Shown: positions 520-35,094 of the stretch, piece by piece
Layout of the letters: every line of letters begins with the position of its first letter
How positions within the stretch are numbered: the stretch's first letter is position 1
Source of the DNA: a virus
Taxonomy: Duplodnaviria; Heunggongvirae; Uroviricota; Caudoviricetes
IMG/VR virus record: IMGVR_UViG_3300028833_002293
Location: 36,535-100,534 of that record
Direction: 5' to 3' (one strand)
Length of the DNA: 64,000 bases
The notes under the pieces: model-generated
What the model saw: only the letters and a program-made list of their open reading frames with translations
Told to the model about the DNA's origin: nothing
Databases searched by the model: none
Made by a program: the position numbers and the translations under genes

Positions 520-1032
520 TTAGCTTTCTGCATTCTCAGCAATAATTCTATCTCTAACCTCGTTAAGAACCTTACCTAGTAAGTTCTGTCCTTTCCAAGT
601 AGACTCATCATCAGTAATCTCATTAGTGTGAATTCCAGCACCCCATATGCGGTCAAATGGACTTGATTCACAGAAGCCCTTGCCCTTATATCTCTCGCCT
701 AGCAAAGCCTCTTGGAGTTTAGGACACTTGGTATACTTGAGATAGTTTGCTTCAAGCATTACTTCGTAACGCTTTTCATCCCAAACCTTATCGTCATAGT
801 TCTTAACCTCTCTACCCAATGCCTTTGCAACCTTTGGGTCTTTACCCTCGTTGATTATCCTCTCAGCGGTTTCTTCATCACCAAATGTCTTGGCTTTAAC
901 GAACATGAAATACTGCTCCGCATTGTGGAACTCGTACTCTTTGCCCTCATACTCAGCAGTAAAAATTGAAGGATACCAATTTGAAGGCCATCCACTCCAG
1001 AAAAATACGTGCTCGTCTGTAACTCTAATCAT
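520..1032 (-). CDS. NADAR / YbiA-like (DUF1768) domain protein
   Basis: 170 aa ORF; motifs FFWSG...SNW and HNAEQYFMFVKAK typical of the NADAR/YbiA family (ADP-ribose/NAD-related N-glycosidase superfamily). Confidence 0.5.
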   Translation of the reverse strand: MIRVTDEHVFFWSGWPSNWYPSIFTAEYEGKEYEFHNAEQYFMFVKAKTFGDEETAERIINEGKDPKVAKALGREVKNYDDKVWDEKRYEVMLEANYLKYTKCPKLQEALLGERYKGKGFCESSPFDRIWGAGIHTNEITDDESTWKGQNLLGKVLNEVRDRIIAENAES

Positions 1033-1406
1033 ATTTTTTGTATTTTTTTAGTTTTTCTATTAAATTTAAAATTATTAGCTTTCATTACGCCAATAAGTTC
1101 TGCCATTTCAGAAAACTTTGGTTTTCTAATAATGCTAATTTCATAGACATTTCTTGACCATGCGGTGAAGCCAATATTCAAGTGTTTTACTCCTTCAGTC
1201 ATAGAATCAAAAAAATGCCCTCCAAGGTTTATGGCTGCAATTACCCCAATGTTTACAGATTTATAATTAGGGGCACTCCCATCATCAGAAATTATTCCAT
1301 TTGCAATGAATATTATATAATTTCTTTGGTGTGTATTTCTACTAATATCTGGATATTCAGCCACTAATACATCACCATATTTTATGTTTGACAAATTTTT
1401 ATACAT
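1029..1406 (-). CDS. hypothetical protein (tandem paralog 1)
   Basis: 125 aa ORF; clear similarity to the adjacent ORF 1382..1738 (shared DYIIFIA and IRKPxFSEMxELI motifs). Confidence 0.5.
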   Translation of the reverse strand: MYKNLSNIKYGDVLVAEYPDISRNTHQRNYIIFIANGIISDDGSAPNYKSVNIGVIAAINLGGHFFDSMTEGVKHLNIGFTAWSRNVYEISIIRKPKFSEMAELIGVMKANNFKFNRKTKKIQKI

Positions 1407-1738
1407 TTTCTATTATATATGTAACCGTTTTCTTTTAGTCTATTAATTAATTCTGTCATTTCAGAAAAAGTCGGTTTTCTTATCGTACTTGTTTTATGTT
1501 TTTCTATGAAATATATTGTGTAGCCAATGGACAAATTAGTTCCAACTTCAAGAGTATTTGAAAGGTCTATCGAAGCCATAACTGGTATTGAATAGCAAAT
1601 ATAACCATTACCACTTGATATAGACGGTTTATAATCACTAGCAATGAAAATTATATAATCCCTTTTAAATTGATGCTGCTCATCATTGTTGTATTTCGCA
1701 ACTAAAATATCACCACGTTTTATATCAAATATTTCCAT
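1382..1738 (-). CDS. hypothetical protein (tandem paralog 2)
   Basis: 118 aa ORF paralogous to 1029..1406. Confidence 0.5.
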   Translation of the reverse strand: MEIFDIKRGDILVAKYNNDEQHQFKRDYIIFIASDYKPSISSGNGYICYSIPVMASIDLSNTLEVGTNLSIGYTIYFIEKHKTSTIRKPTFSEMTELINRLKENGYIYNRKCIKICQT

Positions 1739-2091
1739 TAAAATAGTTTTTCTATAAATTTGACCTTTCTAGCCCTTCTGTCGTAGTAGCGACCACTGTT
1801 TTTAAGTTTGTCTACTACAAACATTGCTTCTTGTGGAGAGGCTTTAATTAAATCTCGTGTATCAAAGTCAATTCTAAGCGCATGATTGGTATTAATTGCC
1901 TCACCTTTAACAAAATACAAGAAATGGCAACTTATATCCACGCTATATGAATCACTATCAATTGATTTAAAACAGCCAATAACAAGAGTTTTATTTTTAT
2001 CAGCTACTTTGAAAAAGTCACCATCTTTAAATTCTTTTTTAGCCTTAATGAACTTTTCTTTAGCTCTTCTGCTTATCTCTTCTACAGTCAT
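1738..2091 (-). CDS. hypothetical protein
   Basis: 117 aa ORF; promoter motif at 2105..2150 and hairpin terminator upstream of that. Confidence 0.5.
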   Translation of the reverse strand: MTVEEISRRAKEKFIKAKKEFKDGDFFKVADKNKTLVIGCFKSIDSDSYSVDISCHFLYFVKGEAINTNHALRIDFDTRDLIKASPQEAMFVVDKLKNSGRYYDRRARKVKFIEKLF

Positions 2092-2128
2092 ATTGTTGTA
2101 TGTTTAGTTTGTGCAAATATATAAAAAA

Positions 2129-2160
2129 ACGTGGAAGATAACAAATCCTCCACGTTAAAT
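2129..2160 (-). terminator. rho-independent-type terminator hairpin (minus strand) followed by a U-run, nested in a promoter cassette
   Basis: acgtggaagataacaaatcctccacgt inverted repeat; the minus strand then reads TTTTTTT. Confidence 0.55.
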
Positions 2161-2164
2161 TATA

Positions 2165-2395
2165 TTAAAAAAAGCGTTTCTTGAAAGAATCAAAAACTTC
2201 TACCCACGAAATTAGGAATAAGAGCAATGCTCTCCAACAATAAAGTAGAAAATGATATATGTTCACAATCGGAACAAATACTACTTTAACGTTTTCCTTT
2301 ATGAAAGGATTATAGCCTTCAGATAGCATGAGTAGAATTAATGCTATCATTGGAACAATGTAAAGCCAAAATACCCAAATCATTAATGTATTCAT
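2165..2395 (-). CDS. small hydrophobic membrane protein
   Basis: 76 aa ORF, very hydrophobic (two predicted TM segments); promoter motif at 2418..2460; terminator hairpin 2129..2160 immediately downstream. Confidence 0.45.
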   Translation of the reverse strand: MNTLMIWVFWLYIVPMIALILLMLSEGYNPFIKENVKVVFVPIVNIYHFLLYCWRALLLFLISWVEVFDSFKKRFF

Positions 2396-2579
2396 AGATT
2401 TTATTATTTAATATTACATCGCAAAGATATAAAAAAAAGATGAGATAAACAAATATCTATTGATAATTATTGTTAAAACAAGAATTATAAAAAAGATAAA
2501 ATATCATATAAGGTATACACTGATGAAAATGAATTGTATAAAGAATTGGATATTATATATAAAGAAAAACTGTAAGCAA

Positions 2580-3920
2580 TCAATGCTTACAGTTTTTTAT
2601 TAAATTAAGTATATATTCACACTTTTCTTTGTTTCCTAACATTTTCCCTTTATCATTTGATAGTTTAACACAATCTTGCCACTCACGGCTTTCAGTAATT
2701 CTAAATCCAGTGAGTTTTATTACAATATTGCTATATGGGAACTTCTTTACTTCAACTGGATAATTACCTCTTATAGTTTTTCCATCCTTTACCTCGTCTA
2801 TTGCCATTGGAGTACCTAGTGTTTCACACCAAAGATAACTTACGTCAGCGCATAAATGAGTTCCTATTCCCACTGAATCTTTCATTCGCCCATTGACCCA
2901 TTTGTGTAATTCTATAGCCTTGTCAATTGTAAGAGCATTTGAATACACGATTGCCTTTGTCGATGGGTCAATACCAAGAGAACGATACTTTTCAATAATC
3001 TTCTCAGTTTGTTCTTTCTCATCACCACTATCAACACGTAGGCCATCAAATGTTTTCGCAAGACGCTTAGACAAATTAGGGAAGAACATAACATCTGAGA
3101 AATTATCATAAAGGAAAATTCCGACATCACCGTTAAAACAGCGACTCCACTTATCCATTACTTGATAGTTACATTCAAACACGCCACTAACGCACTCTTC
3201 GGCAGATACAATCTGATGCGACATCGTGCCTATAACTCCAAGGTTAAATTCCTTTGCGAACCATACGTTAGATGTACCAACAAATTTACCTAATTTATCG
3301 GATTCTACAACTTGACCAACATTGCTACCTTTTCCGCTTTCAATGGCTTCTTGTGCTGCCTTTAAACCCCTAATAACCTCATGTTGAGCCTCGTATGAAA
3401 AGCGTCTACGAGTTCCCATGTCACTCCAACTAACACCATTTGCAATTAGTTTATTACCTTTAATAAAAGCCTCTTGAAAAACAGTATCCATATTAACCAA
3501 TTTCATATCACCATTGATAGTGTGCATCAACTCAGAAATGGTGGAGAGAATAGGCATTTCCCACATAATTGTAGAATACCACTTACCCTCAATCATGATT
3601 GAGAGATAACCCTCAAGGTCTTGGAAAATGTGAACCTCAGATGGGTTGAAACGGAAACCACGCAAGAAATTGTAATACCAATCTGGAAGGAAATAAATCT
3701 TGCTCTTCATGAACTCAATCTCTTCCTCAGTGATAACGACATCTTTCATACCGTCAATCTGCTCTTGTAGAAGCTTACCAAAACCCTCTGGATAGCGAGT
3801 ATGGTTACGGTCAAAGAAAGAATACCGTACCTCTGCACGAGGATAAGTGTGAAGAATGTAATACTGGCAAGTGTACGTGTAAAGGTCATTGTCAGTGAAA
3901 TGTGTAACAATTTGATTCAT
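2580..3920 (-). CDS. nicotinate/nicotinamide phosphoribosyltransferase family enzyme (PncB/NadV-like)
   Basis: 446 aa ORF; size and overall composition match the type-II PRTase NAPRTase/NAMPT family; paired in this window with a nicotinamidase, an NMN deamidase and a Nudix enzyme. Confidence 0.55.
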   Translation of the reverse strand: MNQIVTHFTDNDLYTYTCQYYILHTYPRAEVRYSFFDRNHTRYPEGFGKLLQEQIDGMKDVVITEEEIEFMKSKIYFLPDWYYNFLRGFRFNPSEVHIFQDLEGYLSIMIEGKWYSTIMWEMPILSTISELMHTINGDMKLVNMDTVFQEAFIKGNKLIANGVSWSDMGTRRRFSYEAQHEVIRGLKAAQEAIESGKGSNVGQVVESDKLGKFVGTSNVWFAKEFNLGVIGTMSHQIVSAEECVSGVFECNYQVMDKWSRCFNGDVGIFLYDNFSDVMFFPNLSKRLAKTFDGLRVDSGDEKEQTEKIIEKYRSLGIDPSTKAIVYSNALTIDKAIELHKWVNGRMKDSVGIGTHLCADVSYLWCETLGTPMAIDEVKDGKTIRGNYPVEVKKFPYSNIVIKLTGFRITESREWQDCVKLSNDKGKMLGNKEKCEYILNLIKNCKH

Positions 3921-3923
3921 ATA

Positions 3924-4367
3924 TTATTTCTCTTTTATTTTTTCTAAATTTATTACTGTTTTCTCTCCAATACGTAATGGCATTTGTTTTACAAGTTCTA
4001 GCCCTTCTAGACCAATAACTTGACCACGACCAAGCCTATCTTGAATATAGGCTATAACGTAATGTTTATTCTGACCGTGTTCAGCAACACCAATTATTTT
4101 GAAATCACCTGCATTTTTTCTTGCATCCTCTTCGTCTTGATAATGTAAGAAATTAGAATAGTATGGAACTTGACACTTGCCAGTAAAATGAACAAATGCA
4201 CCCTTATAGGATGAATAAGATTCACCCCAATCCTTAACCTTTACAATATCTCCCACACGAAATGGAAACAAAATTGTACCCCCATCACTATTAATATATT
4301 CAAATAGTTTAATATTCATATTCTTGTTGGGTATATGCCCTAGTAGTATCTTGCTCATAATCATCAA
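3924..4367 (-). CDS. hypothetical protein
   Basis: 147 aa ORF tightly packed downstream of the PRTase gene. Confidence 0.5.
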   Translation of the reverse strand: MMIMSKILLGHIPNKNMNIKLFEYINSDGGTILFPFRVGDIVKVKDWGESYSSYKGAFVHFTGKCQVPYYSNFLHYQDEEDARKNAGDFKIIGVAEHGQNKHYVIAYIQDRLGRGQVIGLEGLELVKQMPLRIGEKTVINLEKIKEK

Positions 4368-4674
4368 CCTCTTCTATATCATCGGCTGTTTCTCTAGTGC
4401 TGCTCCTACCATAGTAACTATTTGAATTGTTATAATAGGGGTTATATCTATCATGGGAGTTCTTAGAAAGCTCTCCCATGAAATAGAATGTCTCAGCACA
4501 AGAAACCATTAGGCATAGAACTAAGGCAATTCTGATTAAGCCTCTGAATAAATCTCTTCCCATTACCCAATAGCCATTAGCCAATCTTAATATCTTCATA
4601 ATTCTCGTGATACCACTTGTCGAATTCCTCGAACTCAGCGTCTGAGAACTCCTTACGTACTGCATCATACTCAA
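4309..4674 (-). CDS. hypothetical protein (N/Y-rich low-complexity tail)
   Basis: 121 aa ORF; overlaps neighbours at both ends, so the true start may be internal. Confidence 0.3.
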   Translation of the reverse strand: MSMMQYVRSSQTLSSRNSTSGITRIMKILRLANGYWVMGRDLFRGLIRIALVLCLMVSCAETFYFMGELSKNSHDRYNPYYNNSNSYYGRSSTRETADDIEEVDDYEQDTTRAYTQQEYEY

Positions 4675-5488
4675 TGTAATCGCAATACTTCACCTTAACG
4701 ATGACACGAGTGGAACTACCATTGCCACTGTAAAGAGGAATGATGGGACGTGCTACAATACCCTCCTCAAGCATTGTTGGGTCAGCAGCTCCCTCAAATT
4801 TGGTAGTGAAGCCCTTACGTACCATATCCTCAATGTCACGCAAGGTCATAACACCCAAGAAAGGAACTTGCTCAAGGCCAAGACACTTGCACATTGCATC
4901 ACGGTTCTCCTTTGGCAACCACCAACCTTGCCGTTTGATGTCGAACACACGGAATCCATTACCATTCTGAATGTAGCGAGAACCACACTTCTGAATACCA
5001 GTACCGAAATACTCACCGTAGATATAAACTGGAACCTCTTCAAGGGTTACACGATACATATCGGAACATAATGTTTCTGCTTTATTTCCATCGAGCCTAT
5101 AGTACTCTATTTTATTTGTTTCTTTGTCTTTTCTTGGAGTAAATCTAGCACTCTCTTTAGGGAACATTGCGCAAAGTTGTGGCTTGATGCGCTCACCAAT
5201 CTCTTGCAGCATTTCAAACTGTCCATGCTGAGAGCTTGCTTTATCAGTTTTGCCTTCAATTAAAATTTCTTGAGTTGATGGGAAAAAAGCAATTTTGCTA
5301 CAAGTTCCATCAATTTTGCTATATGCCTCCCAAGGACAATTGAAAAGGTAACTAGCCTCAATGTTTGAAAACTCGCCCAAGATTATTTTATTCTTGAACT
5401 TAAGCCACTTCTTGTTTGGACATTTACTACCATCAAATACATACCTTTTATACAAGGTGTTTATTTTTTGATAAACTTCTAGGCTCAT
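4577..5488 (-). CDS. ATP-dependent RNA ligase-like protein
   Basis: 303 aa ORF with nucleotidyltransferase motif I KIDGT (KxDG) near residue 60, as in T4 Rnl-type RNA ligases. Confidence 0.5.
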   Translation of the reverse strand: MSLEVYQKINTLYKRYVFDGSKCPNKKWLKFKNKIILGEFSNIEASYLFNCPWEAYSKIDGTCSKIAFFPSTQEILIEGKTDKASSQHGQFEMLQEIGERIKPQLCAMFPKESARFTPRKDKETNKIEYYRLDGNKAETLCSDMYRVTLEEVPVYIYGEYFGTGIQKCGSRYIQNGNGFRVFDIKRQGWWLPKENRDAMCKCLGLEQVPFLGVMTLRDIEDMVRKGFTTKFEGAADPTMLEEGIVARPIIPLYSGNGSSTRVIVKVKYCDYIEYDAVRKEFSDAEFEEFDKWYHENYEDIKIG

Positions 5489-6058: not shown

Positions 6059-6691
6059 TTAAAATAGGTTAATATTGCAAAGTTTATATATTCCAATGCA
6101 CGAATAGATAAATGTAGCAATCAGAAGAATTCCCAATACTAATCCACCCCAAAAATAATAGATTAGCCCAAATATCATAAATAAGCCAATTATAACGCTT
6201 GCTGTGCCAAATACAAATTGATAATACAACAACGAATGTTTTATTGGATACTCTTTATCTTTGAAGTATTCTTTAGCATAATATCCAAGGGCTTTAGGTA
6301 CAGTCATTATAGACACCGATTTACTATGGTCATAGTTATTGTCGTGAATCATTCTACGTATAATCTGCACCCTTTTTATAAAATCACTATCAAAAGGTCT
6401 TATGGTAATGTCACCTACATAAGATAACTCATGTGTTCTTAATGCTGATATTTTTTCCCCTACGTCTAAACCATGCATTTTGAACAATGAACAGAATGAG
6501 CCAAATACTTTTTGATTTTTCAGTGCTTTATAAAAATCGAGAACAATGGGGTTATTGGTCTCGACACCTGAATTATGATAAACATTCAAAGTAGTCTCTC
6601 TAACTCCCAAAACCTCTTTTTCCACTTTTATTTTATTTGATATGGCTTGTTTACGTTTTCTTAACTTAACCTTTTTACTCTGTCTTGTCAT
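6059..6691 (-). CDS. hypothetical protein with C-terminal transmembrane anchor
   Basis: 210 aa ORF; hydrophobic C-terminus. Confidence 0.5.
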   Translation of the reverse strand: MTRQSKKVKLRKRKQAISNKIKVEKEVLGVRETTLNVYHNSGVETNNPIVLDFYKALKNQKVFGSFCSLFKMHGLDVGEKISALRTHELSYVGDITIRPFDSDFIKRVQIIRRMIHDNNYDHSKSVSIMTVPKALGYYAKEYFKDKEYPIKHSLLYYQFVFGTASVIIGLFMIFGLIYYFWGGLVLGILLIATFIYSCIGIYKLCNINLF

Positions 6692-6914
6692 TCTTCTTGA
6701 ATACGTCTTTGAAAGGCTTTACAATGCTTTTCCAACTGAATAGCCTATCAACTAATTTCTCACTGTCTAAGTCTATTACAAGACCCTCTAGTATTCCAAG
6801 TTTCTCTTTATATGTTGATGCCTCTTTTGAAACATCAACAAGGGTTGACTCCAACTGCTTGATTTTATTCTTCAAGCCATTGTACTCTGTCATCGGGATT
6901 TCTATCCTAGGCAT
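6675..6914 (-). CDS. hypothetical protein (coiled-coil-like)
   Basis: 79 aa ORF. Confidence 0.4.
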   Translation of the reverse strand: MPRIEIPMTEYNGLKNKIKQLESTLVDVSKEASTYKEKLGILEGLVIDLDSEKLVDRLFSWKSIVKPFKDVFKKNDKTE

Positions 6915-7489
6915 ACTCTTTCAGAATTTTCGATGAAGTTAGTAAACTTGTCAGCAGTATCTTGAGCGATTGCTGGACACAAATTCTTAATCACATGGAA
7001 ATTAACGTGAGGTAATCCCCTCAGTCCATCTTTTACAGAATCTTGGATGCAATAATCGTAGGCAATACCAGCGACATCAACATCAGTCACATTTAACTGC
7101 TCTTCACAGATTGTAATGAGCTTGTCACAAGATTTACCATTCTTGAAGATAGAATACTCTTCATGGTCTTCGTTTACGCCCTTTCTCAGAACAAGGTAAT
7201 CAGCCTTAATCTTGTTCAGTGCATCAAGAATTGGCTCATAGATAGCTGCACCTTTTGAATGCTGAACACAGTGAACTGGCCACATACCGCCATTATCCTT
7301 AAACGAACAGTGAGTGAACGGATGCCAGTCAACGGTAAGAATAATCTTATCATACACTGGACCATTTTCTATGATAAACTGAGCGAGTTTATCCATTGCT
7401 GCTGTTGCTCCATTAACAGCAAGCTTGCCACCTTCCAGGAAGTCGTATTGGCAATCAATCAGTAACAGTATTTTCGTCATTTGTTTCAC
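6902..7489 (-). CDS. pncA: nicotinamidase / isochorismatase-family hydrolase
   Basis: 195 aa; N-terminal LLLIDCQYDF and a catalytic Cys context typical of the PncA/isochorismatase fold. Confidence 0.6.
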   Translation of the reverse strand: MKQMTKILLLIDCQYDFLEGGKLAVNGATAAMDKLAQFIIENGPVYDKIILTVDWHPFTHCSFKDNGGMWPVHCVQHSKGAAIYEPILDALNKIKADYLVLRKGVNEDHEEYSIFKNGKSCDKLITICEEQLNVTDVDVAGIAYDYCIQDSVKDGLRGLPHVNFHVIKNLCPAIAQDTADKFTNFIENSERVCLG

Positions 7490-7874
7490 TTTTTATTTCT
7501 TCAGTTATTTCTTTTTTTACTTTCTTAGCACTAGCTTTCTTAGTACTTGCCTTTCTAGTACTTTTAGGTCTCTCTTCCTTGAGAGGAACATTTTTCACGT
7601 CTGATGGAAGTTCTTGGAAGAATGTATCAGTTTTGGGCATTTTTTCATTGATGTGCTGAACTGCATCGTTAAACTCCTTTTGCTCTTCCTCAGTCATTTC
7701 TCTAATCTCAGTCTTTTTCTGTTCCTCTAATTCCTTCAATTCTTTCAAAAACTGATGCTTAGATATATCATAGGTGACACAGCTATTATGGAATTTCTTC
7801 GCAAATAGCTCAGTGCAAGAACCTTCTGTTCTCTTTACACCCTTAAACGGACAATTCTTACATAATGTACCCAT
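7455..7874 (-). CDS. hypothetical Cys-containing / Lys-Glu-rich protein
   Basis: 139 aa ORF; promoter motif 7890..7925. Confidence 0.45.
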   Translation of the reverse strand: MGTLCKNCPFKGVKRTEGSCTELFAKKFHNSCVTYDISKHQFLKELKELEEQKKTEIREMTEEEQKEFNDAVQHINEKMPKTDTFFQELPSDVKNVPLKEERPKSTRKASTKKASAKKVKKEITEEIKSETNDENTVTD

Positions 7875-7997: not shown

Positions 7998-9392
7998 TTA
8001 GACTGTTAGGCTCTTCAGTTTGTTCTCTACAATCTCAAATGCTTCATCCTTAGTCATGTTAGGATTCTCAAAGTAAGCATCTTTAACAGTTTCAAGGAGT
8101 ATTCCTATTGTTGGAGAAGGTTTGATTTTAAATTCTTTTATGATGTCATTCCCAGAAATTGGAAGTTTTACATTTGCAGCTTTCTCAGCATCTTCCATTT
8201 CCTCAATTCTATTAAGAATATCAAGAACTTGTCTCTTCTTCTTACCATAGGTACAGTGCAAGTTGTTTGCATTCATCAAGTCAACAGTTGTGCCAAGGTC
8301 TTCACCAGTGAGGTTAATGAACTTCCTAATCTTCTTATCTGGAGGCATCACACCATCAGCATAAGGCGCAAATCCCCTATGGAACTTAATGGCAGTCTCT
8401 ACCGCCTTAATAATATAGTTAGGGAACTTCATTGCCTTAAGGTCATCAGCAGCCACTTCAGCACTGAATTTGTCTGGATTAACGTCTCTCCTTCTGTCAG
8501 TAATGATTCTGCCAACGTCATGGAACAACGCAGCTAAACGGTTCTCAAGATACGGCTGCACAGTATCAACCACGTTCATGGTATGGTCGAAAGTAGATAC
8601 CATTGGATTCTTTGACTCAAACGCATAAGTTGTGTCGTAAATGTCTGGCATTACTCTATGCAGTATTCCACAGTAGTACATTTTGCGAATACCAATACTA
8701 GGCTTTTTACAAAGCAGTATCTTTGAGATTTCGTCACTGATACGCTCTTGAGAGATTATCTTGATTCGATGTGCATTTTTAACCATACCCAACCATGTAT
8801 TCTTCTCAATACCCCAACCAAATCTAGTTGAGAAACGTATAACACGCAGTATTCTCAATGGGTCATCGTTGAACGTAATGTCTGGGTCAGTCGGTGTCTT
8901 AATCACTTGGTTCACAAGGTCATCCAAACCGTTGTTATAATCGTGAATCTTCTCTGTGCTAATGTTGTAGTACAGAGAGTTGATTGTAAGGTCACGTCTC
9001 TTAGCATCCTCTTGAATCGTACCATACACTGTGTCTGGATTTCTGCTCTCCTTATGATACTGCTCCTTACGAGTCTGAACACACTCAATCTCAATGTCTT
9101 TCAGCTCATCGTTTTTATAAAGCTGAAATTTAGCAGTTCCATATGTCTCAAACACGACTGGATTAGTTCCTTGTATATAACACTGATGCTTCATTGCCAT
9201 GTAACTTGCAAAGAGCATCCCCCCATTTTTGATTTCAATAACGATGTCAACGTCTTTTATGGGTTCATTGAGTAACGCATCCCTCACAGCACCGCCACAA
9301 ATATATACTTTTCCTTCAAAATGAGTTCCTTTAATTGAAGACTGTATTAGTTTTAACAGCTTTTTTATTTTTTCATCCTTGAAAATTTCCAT
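7998..9392 (-). CDS. cca: CCA-adding tRNA nucleotidyltransferase with HD domain
   Basis: 464 aa; Pol-beta head motif GGAVRDALL...DVDIV plus an HD-domain (HDVGR) region, as in bacterial CCA-adding enzymes. Confidence 0.65.
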   Translation of the reverse strand: MEIFKDEKIKKLLKLIQSSIKGTHFEGKVYICGGAVRDALLNEPIKDVDIVIEIKNGGMLFASYMAMKHQCYIQGTNPVVFETYGTAKFQLYKNDELKDIEIECVQTRKEQYHKESRNPDTVYGTIQEDAKRRDLTINSLYYNISTEKIHDYNNGLDDLVNQVIKTPTDPDITFNDDPLRILRVIRFSTRFGWGIEKNTWLGMVKNAHRIKIISQERISDEISKILLCKKPSIGIRKMYYCGILHRVMPDIYDTTYAFESKNPMVSTFDHTMNVVDTVQPYLENRLAALFHDVGRIITDRRRDVNPDKFSAEVAADDLKAMKFPNYIIKAVETAIKFHRGFAPYADGVMPPDKKIRKFINLTGEDLGTTVDLMNANNLHCTYGKKKRQVLDILNRIEEMEDAEKAANVKLPISGNDIIKEFKIKPSPTIGILLETVKDAYFENPNMTKDEAFEIVENKLKSLTV

Positions 9393-9393
9393 T

Positions 9394-10353
9394 TTATTTA
9401 ATTAGTTGTAAAGGATTCATAAATTGGCATAGTTCATGCTCATAATAGAAAACTAAATCTGAGGGCTTTATTTCCATCCCACCTAGTAGCTTATACACTT
9501 GTGGCATATAAGTGACAGGAACGCCCTTTAAAATGCGTTTATGGGCATTTAAATAGTCTTCTTTCTCATATACAGTTAATATTGAGCTAGATGTAGCTAG
9601 TTTAAACTGCCTTGAATGAAGTTTAAATTTGCTTGCTTTATATTCTACGCCTTCAAAAATTTTTATTGGGTCAATTTCAAGTTTTTCAAATTCTTCCTCA
9701 CTACCGTTAAATTTTAATATGATTTCGTCAGCATTAAGAGAAAAATATTCTAATTTTGTGTGCATAATAAATGAAAATAAACTGCCACAGAATTCATTTG
9801 TAATCCATTTTTCAAGATTCATTGTTCTCTTTGGATTCATTTTACCAAAGATAACTTGTCTTATATATTTGGACTTCTTGATATAATCAAGGTCAGTGAA
9901 TTTTCCAATGAAATCCTCATATGTTTTGGTATCATACACAATGGATGGGTTAGCATATCTCAATGTTTGGAAATTTGCCTTTTTCATATCATATGATACA
10001 AACATACATCCATCTTGTTCGTTGGTATAGAGATTTCTATCACCGCATATCGGTTTTATGTCTTTAACATATTTGTTATCTGAAATAAACTCCTTATATG
10101 CATCTGAACTTGTCACTTTTGTGATAATATTATTCCTTACTTGATGATAATATTCAAGGAAGTTATTTGGCTTTCCTTCAAATCTTTCATCAATTAATGA
10201 CATAAGTTCATCATATGAAGTCTTAGCTCCATATTCCTCTTCAAGTAATTCCAATCTATCCTCAAAATAAGGATTTTGGAGAACTTGAATGGGTATATTC
10301 ATATCACTTACGAATCTTGCCCTTAATTGTTTTAATTCAGTTGATGTTTCCAT
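9394..10353 (-). CDS. hypothetical protein
   Basis: 319 aa ORF; promoter motif 10384..10425. Confidence 0.55.
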   Translation of the reverse strand: METSTELKQLRARFVSDMNIPIQVLQNPYFEDRLELLEEEYGAKTSYDELMSLIDERFEGKPNNFLEYYHQVRNNIITKVTSSDAYKEFISDNKYVKDIKPICGDRNLYTNEQDGCMFVSYDMKKANFQTLRYANPSIVYDTKTYEDFIGKFTDLDYIKKSKYIRQVIFGKMNPKRTMNLEKWITNEFCGSLFSFIMHTKLEYFSLNADEIILKFNGSEEEFEKLEIDPIKIFEGVEYKASKFKLHSRQFKLATSSSILTVYEKEDYLNAHKRILKGVPVTYMPQVYKLLGGMEIKPSDLVFYYEHELCQFMNPLQLIK

Positions 10354-22208: not shown

Positions 22209-22823
22209 TTAAACGTCCTCGTCTTCATCCAACAAACGCAACTGAAGAGAAATCTCTTCAATGCGAGTCTTGTGGTTGAAAGCCCACTCGTAGTTGTCAA
22301 TGTCCTTAATCTTGACCCACTTAATCTCGCCTACCTCTGCACCCTCATTCTTCTCTTTTGAGAACTTGAAATCAGTTGTAACGTGGTCTTCAATCTTAGC
22401 ACCAAAACGGAAAGTAACGTTCTGTCTATTGGCTGTTACTGGGTTATCTTCATAATTGATAAATATAAGACTTTCAATAGGAATATGAACACCAGTTTCC
22501 TCAAAACACTCACGGACTGCGCACTCCTTAGTGGTTTCGTCATAATCGAGATAACCGCAAGGACAATTCCACATTCCCCTAAAGTCAGCAGCCTCTAAAC
22601 CACGCTCTGATGCTAGGACACACCAATCGCCATCTTCGTCCTTACAAAACGCAAACAATGCTGTTGCCATAGAACGGCTAAACCATCCAATGAAACACTT
22701 GTTAATCACCTCCAAGAACGGTTCATCGTCAATACCAGCGACACCGATGTTGGCACAGAGGTTTTTGATTTCCTCAATAAGTTTATTCATGTCCAAACAA
22801 GGACGATTTGTCATTTTCTCCAT
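22209..22823 (-). CDS. Nudix hydrolase
   Basis: 204 aa; Nudix box GX5EX7REVCEETG is present (AVRECFEETGVHI). Confidence 0.6.
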   Translation of the reverse strand: MEKMTNRPCLDMNKLIEEIKNLCANIGVAGIDDEPFLEVINKCFIGWFSRSMATALFAFCKDEDGDWCVLASERGLEAADFRGMWNCPCGYLDYDETTKECAVRECFEETGVHIPIESLIFINYEDNPVTANRQNVTFRFGAKIEDHVTTDFKFSKEKNEGAEVGEIKWVKIKDIDNYEWAFNHKTRIEEISLQLRLLDEDEDV

Positions 22824-24907: not shown

Positions 24908-25867
24908 TTACTGTTCTACCTTTGTCCAATTATACTTACCTAAGTAATAATCTCCCGTACCCATCCATACATCATAACCACTACTACCACTTGGTACTGT
25001 TAATGTACCACTTGTCTTTATATCTAGGAATACATTACTTTCTATTGTAGGTGCTGTGGTAGCATTACATACTATACTTGTAAGACTAGCACAACCAGCG
25101 AAAGCACTACCACCAATACTTGTAACACTATTACTAATAATTACACTTGTTAAACTTGTGCAACCAGCGAAAGCTTGATAGCCAATAGATGGTGTAGAAT
25201 CACCAATAATTACTGTTTCAAGATTAGTCCAAACACCTCTAAAAGAAGAATTTATATCACATTTTGCATTGTAATTTAGAGTCTTTAATGCATCATGGCC
25301 AAAACAATAGAAAGCTTGCTTACCTATGTTTGTAACACTATCTGGTATGGTTATACTTATTAAACCACTACAACTTTGGAAAGCACTACTACCAATACTT
25401 GTAACACTATTAGGTATAACTATACTTGTAAGATTATTACAATTTTGGAATGCACTATTACCAATGCTTGTAATACTATTTGGTATAATAATCTCTATCA
25501 AATTGGATGAATTAAACACAAGCGCATTATTACCTAATTTGGTTTCATCATATAACTCATATTTAACTGTATGAACACCAATTGTATCAAATCTGTACCC
25601 AGTCACAAGTCCATCTAACATAACGCCGTCTATCTCCATTGACTTGAATACGTTATTTTCATAGCTTGTTCTTAATGGCGTTTGGGTGCTTGTATCTGTC
25701 ACATTATACTTTGCAACAACCCTTGTCTCTTCAGGTTCACTTGGATTATAGTATACAGTTGTAGTGGCATCCTTACACACTGATACATTAGGCTTAATAA
25801 AGTTAGCAGTGTCTGCTGTATAAGCTTCATACTGACTTGTTGTTTCAAATAATTTAAGATATTTCAT
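24908..25867 (-). CDS. BspA-type leucine-rich-repeat surface protein (possible receptor-binding or cell-surface protein)
   Basis: 319 aa; repeated IPNSVTSIGxxAFQxCxxLTSI units typical of Bacteroidota BspA LRRs. Confidence 0.55.
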   Translation of the reverse strand: MKYLKLFETTSQYEAYTADTANFIKPNVSVCKDATTTVYYNPSEPEETRVVAKYNVTDTSTQTPLRTSYENNVFKSMEIDGVMLDGLVTGYRFDTIGVHTVKYELYDETKLGNNALVFNSSNLIEIIIPNSITSIGNSAFQNCNNLTSIVIPNSVTSIGSSAFQSCSGLISITIPDSVTNIGKQAFYCFGHDALKTLNYNAKCDINSSFRGVWTNLETVIIGDSTPSIGYQAFAGCTSLTSVIISNSVTSIGGSAFAGCASLTSIVCNATTAPTIESNVFLDIKTSGTLTVPSGSSGYDVWMGTGDYYLGKYNWTKVEQ

Positions 25868-25952: not shown

Positions 25953-27239
25953 TTAATACCAAATTATTGATTTATCTTGTACCCAATCTGGGAATTTAGT
26001 ATAAACCTCTTGAATTGGTGTTCTTTCGCTACACCATTGGAAGCTAGTGCTAACACAAATTTTCTCTGGAGCTTCTCCAGTTTCAACAGCGAGTGTAATT
26101 ACGTTATCACCATTTTTTACAATTACAGGAATTGACTTAACGGCTTCTGCTCCGTCAATATTCCAATTTGCATCGCCCAATATTACTTTATAGCTAACTG
26201 GTGGACGTGATACGATTCCAGTGTTGACCATAGTGTTAGTAGACACATTGAACATATTATGTACCTCTTTTCCACCAACTGTAAGTGGTAGAGTTCCACC
26301 AGCTGCTTGTAGGGTGATATATGCTACAAGTTTATTTGCGCCCAAGTCTCCAATCCACTCATTAGCAACCTTTGCGTCAAATACAACGTCATTGTAGTCA
26401 AAGTCAGATGTGCTTCCACCAAGGTCTTCTGCAATAATTCTTACAGCACCTTCCATATTGAACTTAGCTGGACTAATCTTCACAATCCAATCGTTGAAGA
26501 CCCAATCCCTAGTCACATCCATATTAACGTTTGCATCTTGACCTACTGGATGGTATCCAACAATGTCAAATCCAACATAGTATGCGCCATCAATCTCAAG
26601 GATGATATAGTCATAGTAGTAATTACTAGAAGAGGTGTTGTGATAACCAAATTGGTCTGCAACCTCACCGCTACCCATATCAACCATCAACGTAGTGCCA
26701 ATGAACTTCTCGTGTGTAACATCATCAGTGTACTCAGTAGTGTTATTAGCATTGTTAAAGTTATTAACGTGCTCATAACTGTTGGTATTGAAATTCCAAG
26801 CTAGCAATTGATTCATAACGCCACTAGGATAAACATGAGTGCCATTTCCATCTACAGAATACTGAGTGCCTTGATGAACTTGCTGAACCCAATAATTCTC
26901 CCAAGGTATATTTTCAATATGAGTTGCACCTTCACGGACTTTAGAGAACTCAGCAACAACCTTTTCCTTTTCAGCTTCTGTCACGTTAACTGGCCTCTCC
27001 CACTGCTGATACCACATATTTCCGTTAACATTGTGGCCTCTAGTCTTGTTTTGTGAAAAATCAAACAAAACAATAGATTCATTGAATCCCCAATCTTGGT
27101 TCTTGTCTATCTTACCAAAAGTATTGGTGAATTCAGCCTTAAACTTTGCATCTGCTGCCTCTTGATAACTTAAATCATTATCGTGCCCACAAGCAGCAAA
27201 CGATAACACGGCAAATAGCCCTAAAATTAATTTCTTCAT
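25953..27239 (-). CDS. lipoprotein, function unknown
   Basis: 428 aa; signal peptide with lipobox (LSFAAC). Confidence 0.55.
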   Translation of the reverse strand: MKKLILGLFAVLSFAACGHDNDLSYQEAADAKFKAEFTNTFGKIDKNQDWGFNESIVLFDFSQNKTRGHNVNGNMWYQQWERPVNVTEAEKEKVVAEFSKVREGATHIENIPWENYWVQQVHQGTQYSVDGNGTHVYPSGVMNQLLAWNFNTNSYEHVNNFNNANNTTEYTDDVTHEKFIGTTLMVDMGSGEVADQFGYHNTSSSNYYYDYIILEIDGAYYVGFDIVGYHPVGQDANVNMDVTRDWVFNDWIVKISPAKFNMEGAVRIIAEDLGGSTSDFDYNDVVFDAKVANEWIGDLGANKLVAYITLQAAGGTLPLTVGGKEVHNMFNVSTNTMVNTGIVSRPPVSYKVILGDANWNIDGAEAVKSIPVIVKNGDNVITLAVETGEAPEKICVSTSFQWCSERTPIQEVYTKFPDWVQDKSIIWY

Positions 27240-29662: not shown

Positions 29663-30274
29663 TTACCTTAATATAAGTAATTTCCTTTTATAATTGATGG
29701 AAACACCACCCAAACCATTCAAAACGTTCATTCCAAGTAGCAAAGGCGCATCTGGATTCTCCATTACTAAGCAATCTACGTTCTTTACAGAGGTATCACC
29801 GATTGAAACTTGAGCAATCTTAATCATGAAGCACTTTGTCGTGTCACCATTGGCGATTGTGCATTCAGATACTTGCGCTGTACTATCGGATATTAGTTTC
29901 TGCTTTTTCAAGAACTCATACTCTATGATGGAGATAGACATCGTTGAAGCTCCAGTGTCCAATGTCATTTTCATCGGAATTCCGTTGACGTTAGCACCAA
30001 CCAAGTAGCAATCACCATCTTGTTCTAGTTTAACAGCGTACTCAAATTCCTTAACTTGTTTCCACTCCACACTATCATTTTTGGTTGGTGTATGTGTACT
30101 ATCAACTTTAGGTTTAACGATTTCCACACTGTCTTCATCAATGCCTAGAGCCTTTGCTTCTAAAACGTTGTACGCTCGTGGAAATAACACTGAGAATAGC
30201 CAAATGAACCCAACTACCACGATGATTGTGAGTATTAGCTTTGTCAAACAACTAGATAATGTTATCTTTTTCAT
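29663..30274 (-). CDS. membrane-anchored retropepsin-like aspartic protease
   Basis: 203 aa; N-terminal TM helix and a DTGAS active-site motif (LDTGASTMSI). Confidence 0.45.
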   Translation of the reverse strand: MKKITLSSCLTKLILTIIVVVGFIWLFSVLFPRAYNVLEAKALGIDEDSVEIVKPKVDSTHTPTKNDSVEWKQVKEFEYAVKLEQDGDCYLVGANVNGIPMKMTLDTGASTMSISIIEYEFLKKQKLISDSTAQVSECTIANGDTTKCFMIKIAQVSIGDTSVKNVDCLVMENPDAPLLLGMNVLNGLGGVSINYKRKLLILR

Positions 30275-30277
30275 ATT

Positions 30278-31264: not shown

Positions 31265-31297
31265 TATATAAAAAAGTTAAATGATTTCTAAAAAAAA

Positions 31298-31378: not shown

Positions 31379-31577
31379 ACGAGAAATGATTTTGCTAGCG
31401 TTGCTCACTTCTCGCAAAAGCAACAGTTGTACTCAACCAACGAGACGGTTTAAAACACCCCAACAGAGCCATATTCCGACAACCCGCTCAGTTGCTATAA
31501 GACCAACCACTCTACAAGCTTACGTGCCCACCATTGCACGTTGAAAAAGGAAAGCTTGCTCACCCTTTAGAATTACA

Positions 31578-32414
31578 TCATCGTCTAACGTTCCACATCT
31601 GATTGGTGCTGCCACCACCGACAAGGACATCAATATTAGCACCTTGTTTTTCTGCAATGGTCTCAATCCACTTCAAGCTAATAAAATCAGCTGCGCTCAA
31701 ATGCATTTCCTCCATATATGCCTTATCAGCCTTTGCTCTCTGACGTTCAGCCTTTTCACGCGCCATTTGAACCTCTGCCTCGCGGTCTTGCGTCTGTTTT
31801 GCTTGCACAGCCTTGGCAGTCTTGTTCATTTCCTCAAGCTGCTCCTTATTAGGAAGCGCCTTACCAATGGTGACTTGCTTTATAATTACTGGAAATTCCT
31901 TCTCCTTTGACAACTTCGCCACATAATCTTGCATTTGTTTCAAAACCTTTGCATCAATATCATTCAAAATTGCACGGTTGGACATAAGGTCAAAAGGACT
32001 ATGCTGAGAAATATGGTCTCTAACTAGGTTGCAATAATAGTTATAAAGGTTTGTGTCAAACCAAGCAGTACCATAATTCTGCAAAAGAATAGGAGACTTG
32101 CCCTTAATAATCTGAGTGATGATAATCGTATGAAAATCAAGTGGAGTATTGTCATCGGAGAACAAGTCATCCATATCCACTTGGTGTTTAAAAGGCACAA
32201 TCTTAAACGTCTCGGTGTCAGTTGACCACCAAATCCATTCCAAACCCGTCTCTACTGGCTTCTCTTGTACACCACCATGACCCAAGAACCAAGGCTTGTC
32301 AATCAAGACGGTTTCCTCGTCAGCATCAACTGTGGTGCAACCAATACACGATGTCATCGTCAAACTCAACATTGCTACGAGAGCAATCGAAAACATTGCT
32401 AAAATTTTCTTCAT
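31578..32414 (-). CDS. lipoprotein, function unknown
   Basis: 278 aa; signal peptide plus Cys lipobox (LTMTSC). Confidence 0.5.
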   Translation of the reverse strand: MKKILAMFSIALVAMLSLTMTSCIGCTTVDADEETVLIDKPWFLGHGGVQEKPVETGLEWIWWSTDTETFKIVPFKHQVDMDDLFSDDNTPLDFHTIIITQIIKGKSPILLQNYGTAWFDTNLYNYYCNLVRDHISQHSPFDLMSNRAILNDIDAKVLKQMQDYVAKLSKEKEFPVIIKQVTIGKALPNKEQLEEMNKTAKAVQAKQTQDREAEVQMAREKAERQRAKADKAYMEEMHLSAADFISLKWIETIAEKQGANIDVLVGGGSTNQMWNVRR

Positions 32415-32456
32415 AATTTTTTATTCTTTAAATTAAAAGTTAAATAGTTCGATTTG

Positions 32457-32771
32457 TTAATAGAAAATACCTACCTCTACCTCAAGGGAAGACAAAGTAT
32501 TTGCGGTTACAAGCTCCTTATCAATGATGTTGATTTTTGCGTAGCCACAGTCACCGCCCTTAATGTAGATGCTACCATCTTTCTTACGCTTGACACTTTC
32601 ATTTTCCCAATCCTTGCGGTCTTCCTCGTCATCGAAATTGTAATCCTCAAGAATCTTTTCGTAAACTTTCTCTACTACAGCCTTGGCTGTCTCCTTACTG
32701 TCACAAGGGATGACATCAGTACTTACATCATAGTCATCGCTGTCGAAAAACATTGTTTCTACTACAATCAT
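32457..32771 (-). CDS. hypothetical acidic protein
   Basis: 104 aa ORF; promoter 32819..32855. Confidence 0.45.
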   Translation of the reverse strand: MIVVETMFFDSDDYDVSTDVIPCDSKETAKAVVEKVYEKILEDYNFDDEEDRKDWENESVKRKKDGSIYIKGGDCGYAKINIIDKELVTANTLSSLEVEVGIFY

Positions 32772-32860
32772 TGTTTTTTATTATTTAAAGTTAATACTAT
32801 GTTGTTCTCAAATTCGATGCAAAGATATGAAAAATAATTGAAATACCCAAATTATTAATG

Positions 32861-33244
32861 TTAATCTTTCTTAATGGGGCAAACTTTTGGCTTATCCTCT
32901 GTGATGGTATCAACAACCCATTGGATAAAATCATCTTGAATTTTTGCCGCATCAGTAGGATTAAGACCGTATCCACCACTTCCAGTTAACGCACCCCAAC
33001 CACGAACCATAATGAGGATTCCGCTGACATAAAGCCTATCTTTATCAACATTAATATCAGCCTTATCGTATTTTTCAGCTATCTCACCATTAAGCAAACC
33101 AACGATGTGATTCATGTGTGTTTGAGCCTTATCTCCAAATGCAGTAAAAGTTTTAATTCCGTTACTACTATATGCATATATGTTAAAGTCCGCAATTCTA
33201 AACGGTGGCGCATATACATCTTTAAATGTCAATTTCTCTTTCAT
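32861..33244 (-). CDS. hypothetical protein (start trimmed to an internal Met because the ORF's 5' part reads through a tRNA)
   Basis: ORF 32861..33307 begins with GSNPSS, i.e. translation of a tRNA T-arm; second Met at 33244. Confidence 0.45.
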   Translation of the reverse strand: MKEKLTFKDVYAPPFRIADFNIYAYSSNGIKTFTAFGDKAQTHMNHIVGLLNGEIAEKYDKADINVDKDRLYVSGILIMVRGWGALTGSGGYGLNPTDAAKIQDDFIQWVVDTITEDKPKVCPIKKD

Positions 33245-33247
33245 AGT

Positions 33248-33323
33248 TGCAGAGGATGGATTCGAACCAACGACCTCCCTCGTTATGAACAAGGGCGAGC
33301 TGACCAAAACTGCTCTACTCTGC
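33248..33323 (-). tRNA. tRNA with CAU anticodon (Met/Ile2-type), slightly irregular stems
   Basis: reverse complement: GCAGAGT..GAGCAGTTTTGGTCAGCTC..CCTTG-TTCATAA-CGAGG..GTTGG-TTCGAAT-CCATC-CTCTGC-A. Confidence 0.5.
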
Positions 33324-33746
33324 GGACGCTATCTGTTTATTACGTCTATTATAGCAAAGACCTAAGTACTTAGAATGAAATCGAACTTTCAAAAGGCAAT
33401 GGCCTGTCACCTAATGACTCAGATTCCATCGTGGACCAGGTAGGGCTTGAACCTACGTGTAACCAATTACGGTTTCAACTGCTTATGAGGCAGAGCCGAT
33501 ACAAGTCCAAATTGCCAAAGGAACTTTCAGATTAATTCTATCGTATATGCCGTGCTTTACGCCTAGTCTCAACACATTTAAGCCATAATCTCACCGTTTA
33601 TGTCACACATACGAATCCTATGTTAGACTCTCTTTGGCTATGATTTTATTCAATAGTAGTCTTCATCATCATGAAGGCCTATCATAATTTATTTTTTTAG
33701 TTTCGTGATGCAAAGATACGAAAAAAAATTGAGATTACCAAATATT

Positions 33747-34184
33747 TTAAAGTTTTTTAAGCTTTAAATAAAAAAATAGCCCAACCCCCAGTATAATTGA
33801 CAACATGCATACTAATACAATAGTAGCTAAGATACCAAGTAATGTCATGGATAGTTTAAGAAGGTTACTAATAAAACCGTTAAAGTCTTTTTCAAATTCT
33901 TTTTGTTCGGCTTCTTTCTTCGCTTTTTCTGCTGCTTCCTCTCTTTTCTTTATCTCTTTCCTAATGGAGTCATTTTTGGAATTACTTATTGGAATTAGGT
34001 TAAGTTCATCTACCTTAAATCCTAATTGAACCTTGTGTTCATCATTGAAGATAAGGTATTCTGTTCCATCTTTATCTTTAACCTTATTTCCTTTAAGCCA
34101 AAAGGTATCACCATAAGCCAATAAAGAAAATGACACCACAATTGTTATGAATACAATAGTCCAAAATTTTCTAACAGTAATCAT
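33747..34184 (-). CDS. membrane protein with coiled-coil / Lys-Glu-rich segment
   Basis: 145 aa; N- and C-terminal TM segments. Confidence 0.45.
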   Translation of the reverse strand: MITVRKFWTIVFITIVVSFSLLAYGDTFWLKGNKVKDKDGTEYLIFNDEHKVQLGFKVDELNLIPISNSKNDSIRKEIKKREEAAEKAKKEAEQKEFEKDFNGFISNLLKLSMTLLGILATIVLVCMLSIILGVGLFFYLKLKKL

Positions 34185-34222
34185 ATTGGCAAAAAATTAT
34201 TCTAGTAGAAATAAAAAACCAC

Positions 34223-34594
34223 TTAGTAACTCATGCGTGAGGGAATACATCCCCTCACACCCCCTCTTGGGTCTTCAACATCACCATCATACCTTGGTAT
34301 AATATGAATGTGGCAGTGCATCACGGTTTGTCCAGCACTCTTACCACAATTAACACCAATGTTATAACCACTTGGATGATACTTATCATCAAGTATTCCT
34401 TTAACGTGGTCAACTGCGCCAACAAGAGCACCCAATTCCACTTGGTTTAAATCAAAATAAGTTTCACAATGTCTTTTGGGAATTAATAGGGCATGCCCTT
34501 CCGAGACTGGATAACCATCTAAAATAGCCACCCATAAAGAATCTTGATAGACTATTCTATCTTCTTTGATGCCACAAAATACACAACCTTCCAT
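34223..34594 (-). CDS. HIT-family nucleotide hydrolase
   Basis: 123 aa; histidine-triad motif HCHIHIIP. Confidence 0.65.
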   Translation of the reverse strand: MEGCVFCGIKEDRIVYQDSLWVAILDGYPVSEGHALLIPKRHCETYFDLNQVELGALVGAVDHVKGILDDKYHPSGYNIGVNCGKSAGQTVMHCHIHIIPRYDGDVEDPRGGVRGCIPSRMSY

Positions 34595-35094
34595 TATTCT
34601 TCTACGGTTATACGTTTAATCTCACCAATTGCAATGTCCAAAGCCTCATTGATAGCTGTTTCTATGTTCTGACCTCGCAACCCATCAACATTGATTTTGC
34701 TATATTTGAAATCAACTTTTTTGTCGGTTAATGTAGCCACACAAATCCAAACCGTATTATCTGGGTCTTCATCAGCCGCCATAGGTGGAACTACGTTACC
34801 CACAACAGCCACACAAACGTCCACATTAAGCTTATAAATACCGTTGAGAGCCATTTGGCAAGCTGCTTGGGAACTAACAAGCCCATTGTTTTTAAACACG
34901 TTGTGAGAGACTTCTAGCATTTTCTCCATGTGGTCTGCATCGACTGTAACAATTGTACCACCATAAACGGTTGAAAGACCACACATGCTTGAGATTGATG
35001 CACCAAGCAAACCACTAGTGCAATGCTCAACAGTTCCGATGGTTAGACCAGCGTTCAGAAGCTCTAATCCTAATACTTTTAATTTATCCCTCAT
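34594..35094 (-). CDS. CinA C-terminal domain protein (PncC-type NMN deamidase)
   Basis: 166 aa; LTIGTVEHCTSGLLGASIS matches the CinA/PncC signature. Confidence 0.55.
   Translation of the reverse strand: MRDKLKVLGLELLNAGLTIGTVEHCTSGLLGASISSMCGLSTVYGGTIVTVDADHMEKMLEVSHNVFKNNGLVSSQAACQMALNGIYKLNVDVCVAVVGNVVPPMAADEDPDNTVWICVATLTDKKVDFKYSKINVDGLRGQNIETAINEALDIAIGEIKRITVEE

Follow-up and report, generated by a model that had tools for sequence, protein, structure and literature searches.

A scattered Preiss-Handler-type NAD salvage module predicted in a jumbo-phage genome fragment with a probable Prevotella-like host

Introduction

The depletion of nicotinamide adenine dinucleotide (NAD) is among the commonest outcomes of bacterial anti-phage immunity, and the question addressed in the present study is whether a phage might sustain its NAD pool with salvage genes that are scattered along its genome. 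This question is raised by a stretch of 64,000 nucleotides from the IMG/VR virus record IMGVR_UViG_3300028833_002293 (positions 36,535 to 100,534; the whole stretch is hereafter called the window). In an initial annotation, six genes of the window were grouped as a set related to NAD or ADP-ribose, encoding a NAPRTase/NAMPT-family phosphoribosyltransferase (PRTase), a PncA-type nicotinamidase, a Nudix hydrolase, a CinA/PncC-type protein, a HIT hydrolase and a NADAR protein, and the combination was regarded as a possible new variant of a NAD-rebuilding route. All six open reading frames (ORFs) were found, on the minus strand, and Pfam searches matched each protein, including the PRTase, the CinA-like protein and the NADAR protein, to the family that had been named. 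Herein, we propose with moderate confidence that a Prevotella/Bacteroidales-type jumbo phage carries a scattered Preiss-Handler NAD salvage module that would sustain NAD, most plausibly against NAD-depleting immunity.

Results

PncA and PncB

The PRTase (2580..3920, minus strand), a core member of the proposed module, was identified as PncB, a nicotinate phosphoribosyltransferase that would convert nicotinate and phosphoribosyl pyrophosphate (PRPP) to nicotinate mononucleotide (NaMN). The protein matched Pfam NAPRTase_N and NAPRTase (1e-30 and 5e-39) and scored 296 bits against the NCBIfam equivalog TIGR01514 (NAPRTase; cut-off 269.55), and its relatives in the PDB were nicotinate PRTases throughout, the best being 2im5 and 1yir. 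The choice between NAPRT and NAMPT that the initial annotation had left for checking is settled in favor of NAPRT, and the NAMPT reading was rejected because the TIGR01514 cut-off is passed and the solved relatives are all NAPRTs. Compared with the form of ~407 aa in other phages, this PncB contains an insertion of 10 aa that is present in the window only and an insertion of 24 aa that is shared with one related locus (L002) and no other.

The second core member is a PncA-type nicotinamidase of the Isochorismatase fold (6902..7489, minus strand), which would convert nicotinamide to nicotinate. The ORF starts with GTG, and an alternative ATG start lies three codons on (Met4, ~7480). The protein scored 25.2 bits against Pfam Isochorismatase (2e-05), just below the gathering score of 27 bits, and 88 bits against the NCBIfam PncA model NF008623, under the cut-off of that model. 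Its PDB relatives were all nicotinamidases or pyrazinamidases, save one top match deposited as an 'alpha/beta-hydrolase-like protein'. Moreover, in the alignment to 1ilw, residues D12/K103/C147 and D54/H56/H73 fall on the triad and the zinc ligands of the P. horikoshii PncA (1ilw/1im5). With its Asp-Lys-Cys triad and metal site intact, the protein behind the weak isochorismatase-family match is predicted to be a real nicotinamidase. Both genes are seldom carried by deposited phages, PncB being present in 13 and PncA in 8 of 50,697 records, and they are adjacent in two records of uncultured phages from human feces (MT835470 and MT839920), with 7 kb separating them in LR756501 (735 kb).

A recurrent unit in related viral contigs

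Ten IMG/VR viral contigs, 46-410 kb long, encode a PncB that shares 66-80% identity with that of the window. Among 10 related IMG/VR loci, 7 preserve the order CCA enzyme, PncA, RNA ligase, PncB, NADAR, with identities of 50-95%, a pattern indicative of purifying selection. The two syntenic genes in this order that are not discussed elsewhere are an RNA ligase-like gene between PncA and PncB (4577..5488, minus strand; Pfam RNA_ligase 4e-12, PHROG RNA ligase) and a tRNA CCA-nucleotidyltransferase gene just upstream of PncA (7998..9392, minus strand; PHROG 2244, 4.9e-60).

On several other viral contigs, homologues of the same NAD genes stand in compact operons. Locus L009, on a 356-kb contig, has the tight cluster PncA-NadE-PncB-Nudix-x-NadD, L091 has PncA-Nudix-PncB-NadE-NadD, and L083 has the same order with three ORFs of 178, 112 and 257 aa between Nudix and PncB. 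In 23 of 80 viral NadE loci, PncA, PncB, NadD or Nudix lies at most 6 kb from NadE. When every ORF of the window was compared with the compact operons, the only matches were PncA, PncB and Nudix; CinA, HIT and NADAR were found in none of the compact PncA-Nudix-PncB-NadE-NadD operons examined. Because the matches are limited to these three genes, NADAR, HIT and the CinA-like protein are left out of the recurrent unit, which, as judged from these comparisons, is composed of PncA, Nudix, PncB, NadE and NadD and is present in a scattered version in the clade of the window. The grouping of PncA, PncB and Nudix exceeds chance, and that of NADAR, HIT and CinA with them may be fortuitous. In other words, the six-gene NAD set is upheld for PncA, PncB and Nudix, which form an operon in relatives, and is not upheld for CinA, HIT and NADAR.

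The third member of the module is a Nudix hydrolase (22209..22823, minus strand), a candidate member of the NrtR/NadM-Nudix (ADP-ribose pyrophosphatase-like) group, which matched Pfam NUDIX at 3.5e-14 and has an intact Nudix box at residues 90-112. A Pro located 16 residues past the box is invariant in the alignment of the family, and a Pro at this position (+16) is diagnostic for the ADP-ribose pyrophosphatase type. With the family profile, the best PDB match was 2fml, followed by 2qjt (NadM-Nudix) and by 3gz5/3gz8 among others, marginally above generic Nudix proteins. The Nudix protein of the window shares 44-46% identity with its counterparts from L083 and L091, whose genes lie between PncA and PncB, and 33-34% with the counterpart from L009, whose gene comes directly after PncB; in the clade of the window, the gene is ~18 kb away from PncB. 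These similarities place the Nudix gene with PncA and PncB in the predicted NAD module, and its substrate, as predicted from profile similarity and from operon context in relatives, is most likely ADP-ribose.

The small conserved ORFs beside PncA and PncB were considered as hidden NAD enzymes, and this idea was supported neither by Pfam, NCBIfam and PHROG nor by operon comparison: ORFs 3924-4367, 6059-6691, 6675-6914, 7455-7874 and 9394-10353 had no match in the three collections and no counterpart in the compact operons. Several other neighbors of the NAD genes were also observed. In this phage group, the NAD genes are repeatedly found among genes of tRNA maturation and repair, examples being the CCA enzyme and the RNA ligase of the window, the TyrRS and RtcB genes that adjoin NadE in L047 (3441-4721 and 7723-9087) and Thg1 in L007 (5882-6706); NAD supply may thus be connected with tRNA repair. 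An AAA_28 (NadR-kinase-like) ORF adjoins PncB in the distant loci L007 and L008 only, and a YqeY-like ORF (GatB/YqeY domain) lies directly upstream of the compact NAD operon in L083 (899-1375). In addition, TnpB/IS605 OrfB-type (Cas12f1-like TNB) genes adjoin PncB in L007 (11678-13321) and lie near CinA-HIT-Nudix in L187 (8100-9227), which suggests transposon activity in these jumbo-phage genomes.

NadE and NadD

In L047, L051 and L065, the three clade contigs that extend far enough (3 of 3 in an alignment-based scan of IMG/VR), NadE and PncB are 61-73 kb apart, with NadE located toward Nudix and CinA and adjoined by TyrRS and RtcB. On account of this distance, the NadE of the present phage would be expected at ~64-76 kb on the scale of the window, i.e. 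~0-12 kb past its end. As for NadD, no CTP_transf_like match was found within the window, a single-protein NadD scan of viral sequences gave a match to the query's own contig alone, and the ORFs flanking NadE in the relatives have neither an HxGH motif nor similarity to NadD. NadD is essential in bacteria, so that the host enzyme is taken as the default supplier of this step; a phage copy elsewhere in the genome is possible.

The CinA-like protein and HIT

The CinA-like protein (34594..35094, minus strand) matched Pfam CinA at 2e-24 and scored 66.9 bits against TIGR00199, under the cut-off of 68.9. Its AlphaFold2 model (predicted local distance difference test, pLDDT, 94) superimposes on the CinA/PncC structures 2a9s, 5vu3 and 4ct8 with template modeling (TM) scores of 0.82-0.87, and from this model the CinA fold is assigned with confidence. 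Three residues of the active site are replaced. In A. tumefaciens CinA (AtCinA), the mutants S31A, Y58A and K63A abolished nicotinamide mononucleotide (NMN) deamidase activity (PMC5384747), the residues tested being the Ser/Lys catalytic dyad (S31 and K63) and the phosphate-binding Tyr (Y58). In an ungapped alignment to AtCinA (2a9s), these correspond to His24, Val51 and Met56 of the window protein. His24 is kept in at least 90% of 36 CinA-like homologues and, together with its flanking block EHCTSGLLGASISS, forms the stretch with the strongest conservation in the family, which holds among members down to 50% identity, while Ser, Tyr and Lys are retained in the outgroups P0036-P0038 and in E. 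coli PncC. Because the three residues are lost and the loss is conserved across the clade, it is unlikely that the protein acts as an NMN deamidase, which is contrary to its initial annotation, and 'PncC' labels assigned automatically in this clade are probably mistaken as well. The pattern of replacement is more suggestive of a changed function that has been conserved than of decay. A lysine two residues past Met56 (K58) is conserved in the clade and may substitute for K63.

The gene adjoins that of a HIT-family nucleotide hydrolase or transferase (34223..34594, minus strand; Pfam HIT 2.7e-24), in which the motif HCHIHII at residues 93-99 is intact, and the two genes share 1 nt (TAATG). The PDB relatives of the HIT protein are generic, comprising HIT, Hint, Fhit and Ap4A phosphorylase proteins, and no specific link to NAD was found among them or in the compact NAD operons examined, so that its earlier description as NAD-related was not borne out. 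The adjacency of CinA and HIT is kept in L017, L018, L187 and L188 and is broken in L186 and L022; in L022, where the CinA relative has the canonical residues, the two genes are 4.4 kb apart. Herein, the CinA-like/HIT pair is left outside the proposed NAD pathway.

The NADAR protein

The NADAR domain protein (520..1032, minus strand) belongs to the YbiA subfamily and is a candidate ADP-ribosyl-(guanine) glycohydrolase. It matched Pfam NADAR at 5.6e-43 and scored 132.6 bits against TIGR02464 (cut-off 73.7). Reports on NADAR proteins (PMC11543638, PMC11125620, PMC11257639) confirm the earlier statement that they can remove ADP-ribose from guanine. In vitro, activity was observed in all subfamilies, and in vivo protection depended on the toxin (PMC11125620). 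AdfN (T4 gp30.3) is a phage NADAR protein and anti-DarT1 factor in which E36/K43 is the pair that was mutated (PMC11257639). The window protein resembles AdfN and the YbiA-type antitoxins in its NADAR fold and its conserved Glu and Lys pair, E39/K46, which has the same spacing as E36/K43; it differs from the NADAR proteins of T4-like phages in that the last strand carries the Glu that marks the YbiA type (in 'CESSPFD'), whereas theirs carries a His. The gene is syntenic with PncB in the clade of the window and absent from the compact NAD operons. The NADAR protein is considered a separate candidate for counter-defense against DNA ADP-ribosylating toxins, which is a known phage theme. Two neighboring paralogous ORFs, 39% identical to each other (1029-1406 and 1382-1738, minus strand), lie between PncB and NADAR, with conservation in L010 and, in part, in L005.

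The phage, its likely host and other features of the window

All substantial ORFs of the window are on the minus strand, and the GC content is ~35%. The deposited phages (INPHARED) gave no match by megablast with 20 kb or by tblastn with an 826-aa ORF, and a homologue 91% identical to the CinA-like protein is encoded on a 384-kb contig. The nearest cellular PncB proteins come from metagenome-assembled genomes (MAGs) of Prevotella and Bacteroidales (54% identity), and NadE proteins of Prevotella and Muribaculaceae share 64-70% identity with that of a related phage. From these similarities, the window is taken to be a piece of a jumbo phage, and the host would most likely be a Prevotella-like member of the Bacteroidales.

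Besides the CCA enzyme and the RNA ligase, the genes that were recognized encode dihydrofolate reductase (DHFR), an SPFH/Band 7 protein (31578-32414, minus strand), an AAA_25 ATPase, HNH endonucleases, a BspA-type leucine-rich repeat (LRR) protein (24908-25867, minus strand) and an OmpA-domain protein (59920-60933, minus strand). A retropepsin-like aspartyl protease (29663-30274, minus strand) and a lipoprotein-like ORF of 428 aa (25953-27239, minus strand) were also observed; the BspA-type LRR, lipoprotein-like and OmpA-domain proteins are of the cell-envelope type typical of Bacteroidales. Past the end of the window, a look-up with exact protein sequences yielded a contig of 2.4 kb only; on the opposite side, L001 adds 4 kb before the start, in which no Pfam-annotated genes were found.

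A dense tRNA region occupies 31300-62600 (minus strand). ARAGORN reported 28 tRNA genes at 31-63 kb, and Rfam gave 30 tRNAs and one transfer-messenger RNA (tmRNA), the additional tRNA candidates being located at 38688-38759, 39748-39871 (124 nt, possibly intron-containing) and 62379-62449. The tmRNA (RF00023, 42175-42537, minus strand) is full-length (76.9 bits, E 4e-28) and was not reported by ARAGORN; a 72-aa ORF that overlaps it (42062-42280) is probably spurious. HNH or DUF723 endonuclease-like ORFs are found among the tRNAs at 45342-46088, 50857-51273, 52614-53384 and 55348-55962. A tRNA with a CUA anticodon (36322-36413, minus strand), labeled 'Pyl' by ARAGORN, is a potential amber suppressor and prompted us to consider TAG recoding. 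TAG is the rarest stop among the long ORFs (2 of 60). Recoding in the window was rejected since readthrough of TAG gives no longer ORFs, and therefore the standard code is kept here and recoding, if there is any, would concern genes in other parts of the genome.

Discussion

Herein, we propose a scheme for NAD salvage in this phage, in which the enzymatic activities and the selective benefit are predicted from sequence and gene context. First, PncA would deamidate nicotinamide, which is the product of every NAD-cleaving enzyme, NADase defense effectors included, and the resulting nicotinate would be joined to PRPP by PncB to give NaMN. Second, the Nudix hydrolase would split ADP-ribose into AMP and ribose-5-phosphate, from which the host PRPP synthetase would make PRPP. 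Third, NadD, either that of the host or one that the phage encodes in another part of its genome, would convert NaMN to nicotinate adenine dinucleotide (NaAD), and a phage NadE, expected beyond the end of the window, would amidate NaAD to NAD. The net effect would be that the NAD pool is held up during infection, most plausibly against NAD-depleting immunity. The Preiss-Handler-type route that had been put forward for this locus is supported at the sequence level for its first steps, PncA and PncB, and lacks NadD and NadE in the window.

Several points weigh against this scheme. The NAD genes are dispersed among tRNA-repair and other genes and form no operon in the window. NadD, NadE, NMNAT and PRPP synthetase were absent from the window in Pfam scans, which took in all minus-strand ORFs of at least 70 aa, and with hidden Markov models (HMMs) of NadD and NadE built from phage proteins; therefore, the route as seen depends on host enzymes. 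The NadD HMM was also negative on all DNA of the clade loci examined, so that the search for NadD, NadE and NMNAT homologues that the initial annotation had recommended yielded NadE in three clade relatives and nothing within the window. Moreover, the closest PncB (54%) is that of a Prevotella MAG, and likely hosts therefore have this step themselves, in which case the phage copy would add dosage and not a new capability. The substrate assigned to the Nudix hydrolase relies on weak similarity (E ~1e-9 to 1e-6) and gene context. Finally, no published experimental test of a phage Preiss-Handler module was found, and no published demonstration that such a module overcomes a NAD-depleting defense.

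The same biochemistry might serve another purpose, namely the supply of NAD for NAD consumers of the phage, such as NAD-dependent DNA ligase, ADP-ribosyltransferases and dehydrogenases, during a long jumbo-phage infection. The genes would then be auxiliary metabolic genes, and we regard this explanation as possible, though rather unlikely as the sole purpose. PncB and NadE seem to have come from a host, as auxiliary metabolic genes typically do, and the neighbors are of a housekeeping type, with tRNAs, the CCA enzyme and DHFR in the window and TyrRS and RtcB in relatives. However, the 64-kb window yielded no NAD-consuming enzyme, and the phage pathways NARP2 and NARP3, in which salvage from nicotinamide or its riboside was studied experimentally, proved to be counter-defense. 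Both purposes, counter-defense and plain NAD supply, are plausible, and neither excludes the other.

It is very unlikely that the genes form no functional unit at all and are independent accessory genes that happen to share one extensive early-gene region in a jumbo phage rich in genes. This explanation would account for the span of 35 kb with unrelated genes in between, and the Nudix, HIT and NADAR domains are often encountered in phages, each with PHROG families of its own; yet PncB and PncA co-occur, often side by side, despite their rarity in deposited phages, and homologues of PncA, Nudix and PncB stand in tight operons with NadE and NadD on several unrelated viral contigs. It is hardly probable that all six genes act in one NAD/ADP-ribose network, with CinA as a PncC that converts NMN to NaMN, HIT and Nudix acting on dinucleotides and NADAR returning ADP-ribose, since, despite the correct family calls, the conservation of all six genes in the phage clade and the presence of an S/Y/K CinA with HIT and Nudix in the collinear backbone of the distant P0036 (375-kb contig), the CinA-like protein has His/Val/Met at the sites essential for NMN deamidation, the substrates of NADAR proteins are ADP-ribosylated bases and not free NAD metabolites, HIT matches generic HIT proteins only, and CinA, HIT and NADAR are all missing from the compact operons.

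The proposed salvage module can be compared with several known systems. Li et al. 2024 (Microbiome 12:268, PMC11662467) describe 174 'NAD-jumbo phages' from animal guts, many with Bacteroidota hosts, among which pncB-nadD-nadE clusters of the Preiss-Handler type and pncA are found. According to their proposal, NAD is raised for phage needs and to counter NAD depletion. The window shares with these phages the gut-type jumbo phage and the carriage of pncB and pncA, and differs in that its genes are scattered, without nadD or nadE in 64 kb; the definition of NAD-jumbo phages given there asks for a complete pathway, under which the fragment alone would not qualify. The earlier view of the combination as a new variant is largely pre-empted by that report, and the combination belongs, as a scattered case, to a kind that has been described before and is not a new NAD-reconstitution variant. 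What may be new, and modestly so, is the Nudix hydrolase as a regular member of the module, the altered CinA protein and the relationship between operon and scattered versions; the first two were not met in the parts of PMC11662467 that were consulted.

The experimentally validated NARP2, composed of Nampt and Nmnat (NadV/NatV of Vibrio phage KVP40; Osterman et al., bioRxiv 2024.02.11.579819), also relies on PRPP and a type II phosphoribosyltransferase to recover nicotinamide and has a Nudix domain that is probably of the same broad group, NadM-Nudix 2qjt being among the nearest solved relatives of the window Nudix. It differs from the window in that it is amidated and self-sufficient in two steps (nicotinamide to NMN to NAD), whereas the route of the window would be deamidated and have four steps, the PRTase of the window is a NAPRT and not a NAMPT, and the window has no NMNAT. 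NARP1 (Adps and Namat) and NARP3 (PnuC and NadR; PMC13464706) are likewise experimentally proven NAD-rebuilding routes that share the presumed purpose, the rebuilding of NAD during infection, and differ in substrates and chemistry. In the Pfam scans of the window, neither a Prs-like Adps, Namat or a second PRTase domain, of which very divergent homologues would be missed, nor PnuC or a NadR domain was found. The earlier statement that the locus differs from NARP1 and NARP2 is in keeping with these results. In the pyridine nucleotide cycle of bacteria (PncA-PncB-NadD-NadE, along with PncC), the PncA and PncB proteins are orthologous to those of the window in family and catalytic residues; the differences are that the genes of the window are phage-borne, that the place of PncC is taken by a CinA-fold protein without the Ser/Lys dyad and that NadD was not seen.

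A more far-reaching proposal, which we offer only tentatively and consider doubtful at present, is that PncA-Nudix-PncB(-NadE-NadD) represents a fourth phage NAD reconstitution pathway, which would be deamidated, recycle both nicotinamide and ADP-ribose and overcome Thoeris/DSR/SIR2-type defense in Bacteroidales. A neofunctionalized CinA-fold protein (Ser to His) that is translationally coupled to HIT may go along with the module in this clade, and this protein may act on a pyridine or ADP-ribose nucleotide, by binding or conversion, in an undescribed way.

The three proven phage routes (NARP1-3) use amidated or ADP-ribose-based chemistry, and the deamidated Preiss-Handler route has been predicted only, from jumbo-phage metagenomes. 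The window and its relatives yield a concrete and testable minimal set for this route, consisting of PncA, Nudix, PncB, NadE and NadD. For the ecology of the gut and rumen, the present results do not add a new class of system, and they are further evidence that jumbo phages of the Prevotella type manipulate vitamin B3 and NAD metabolism.

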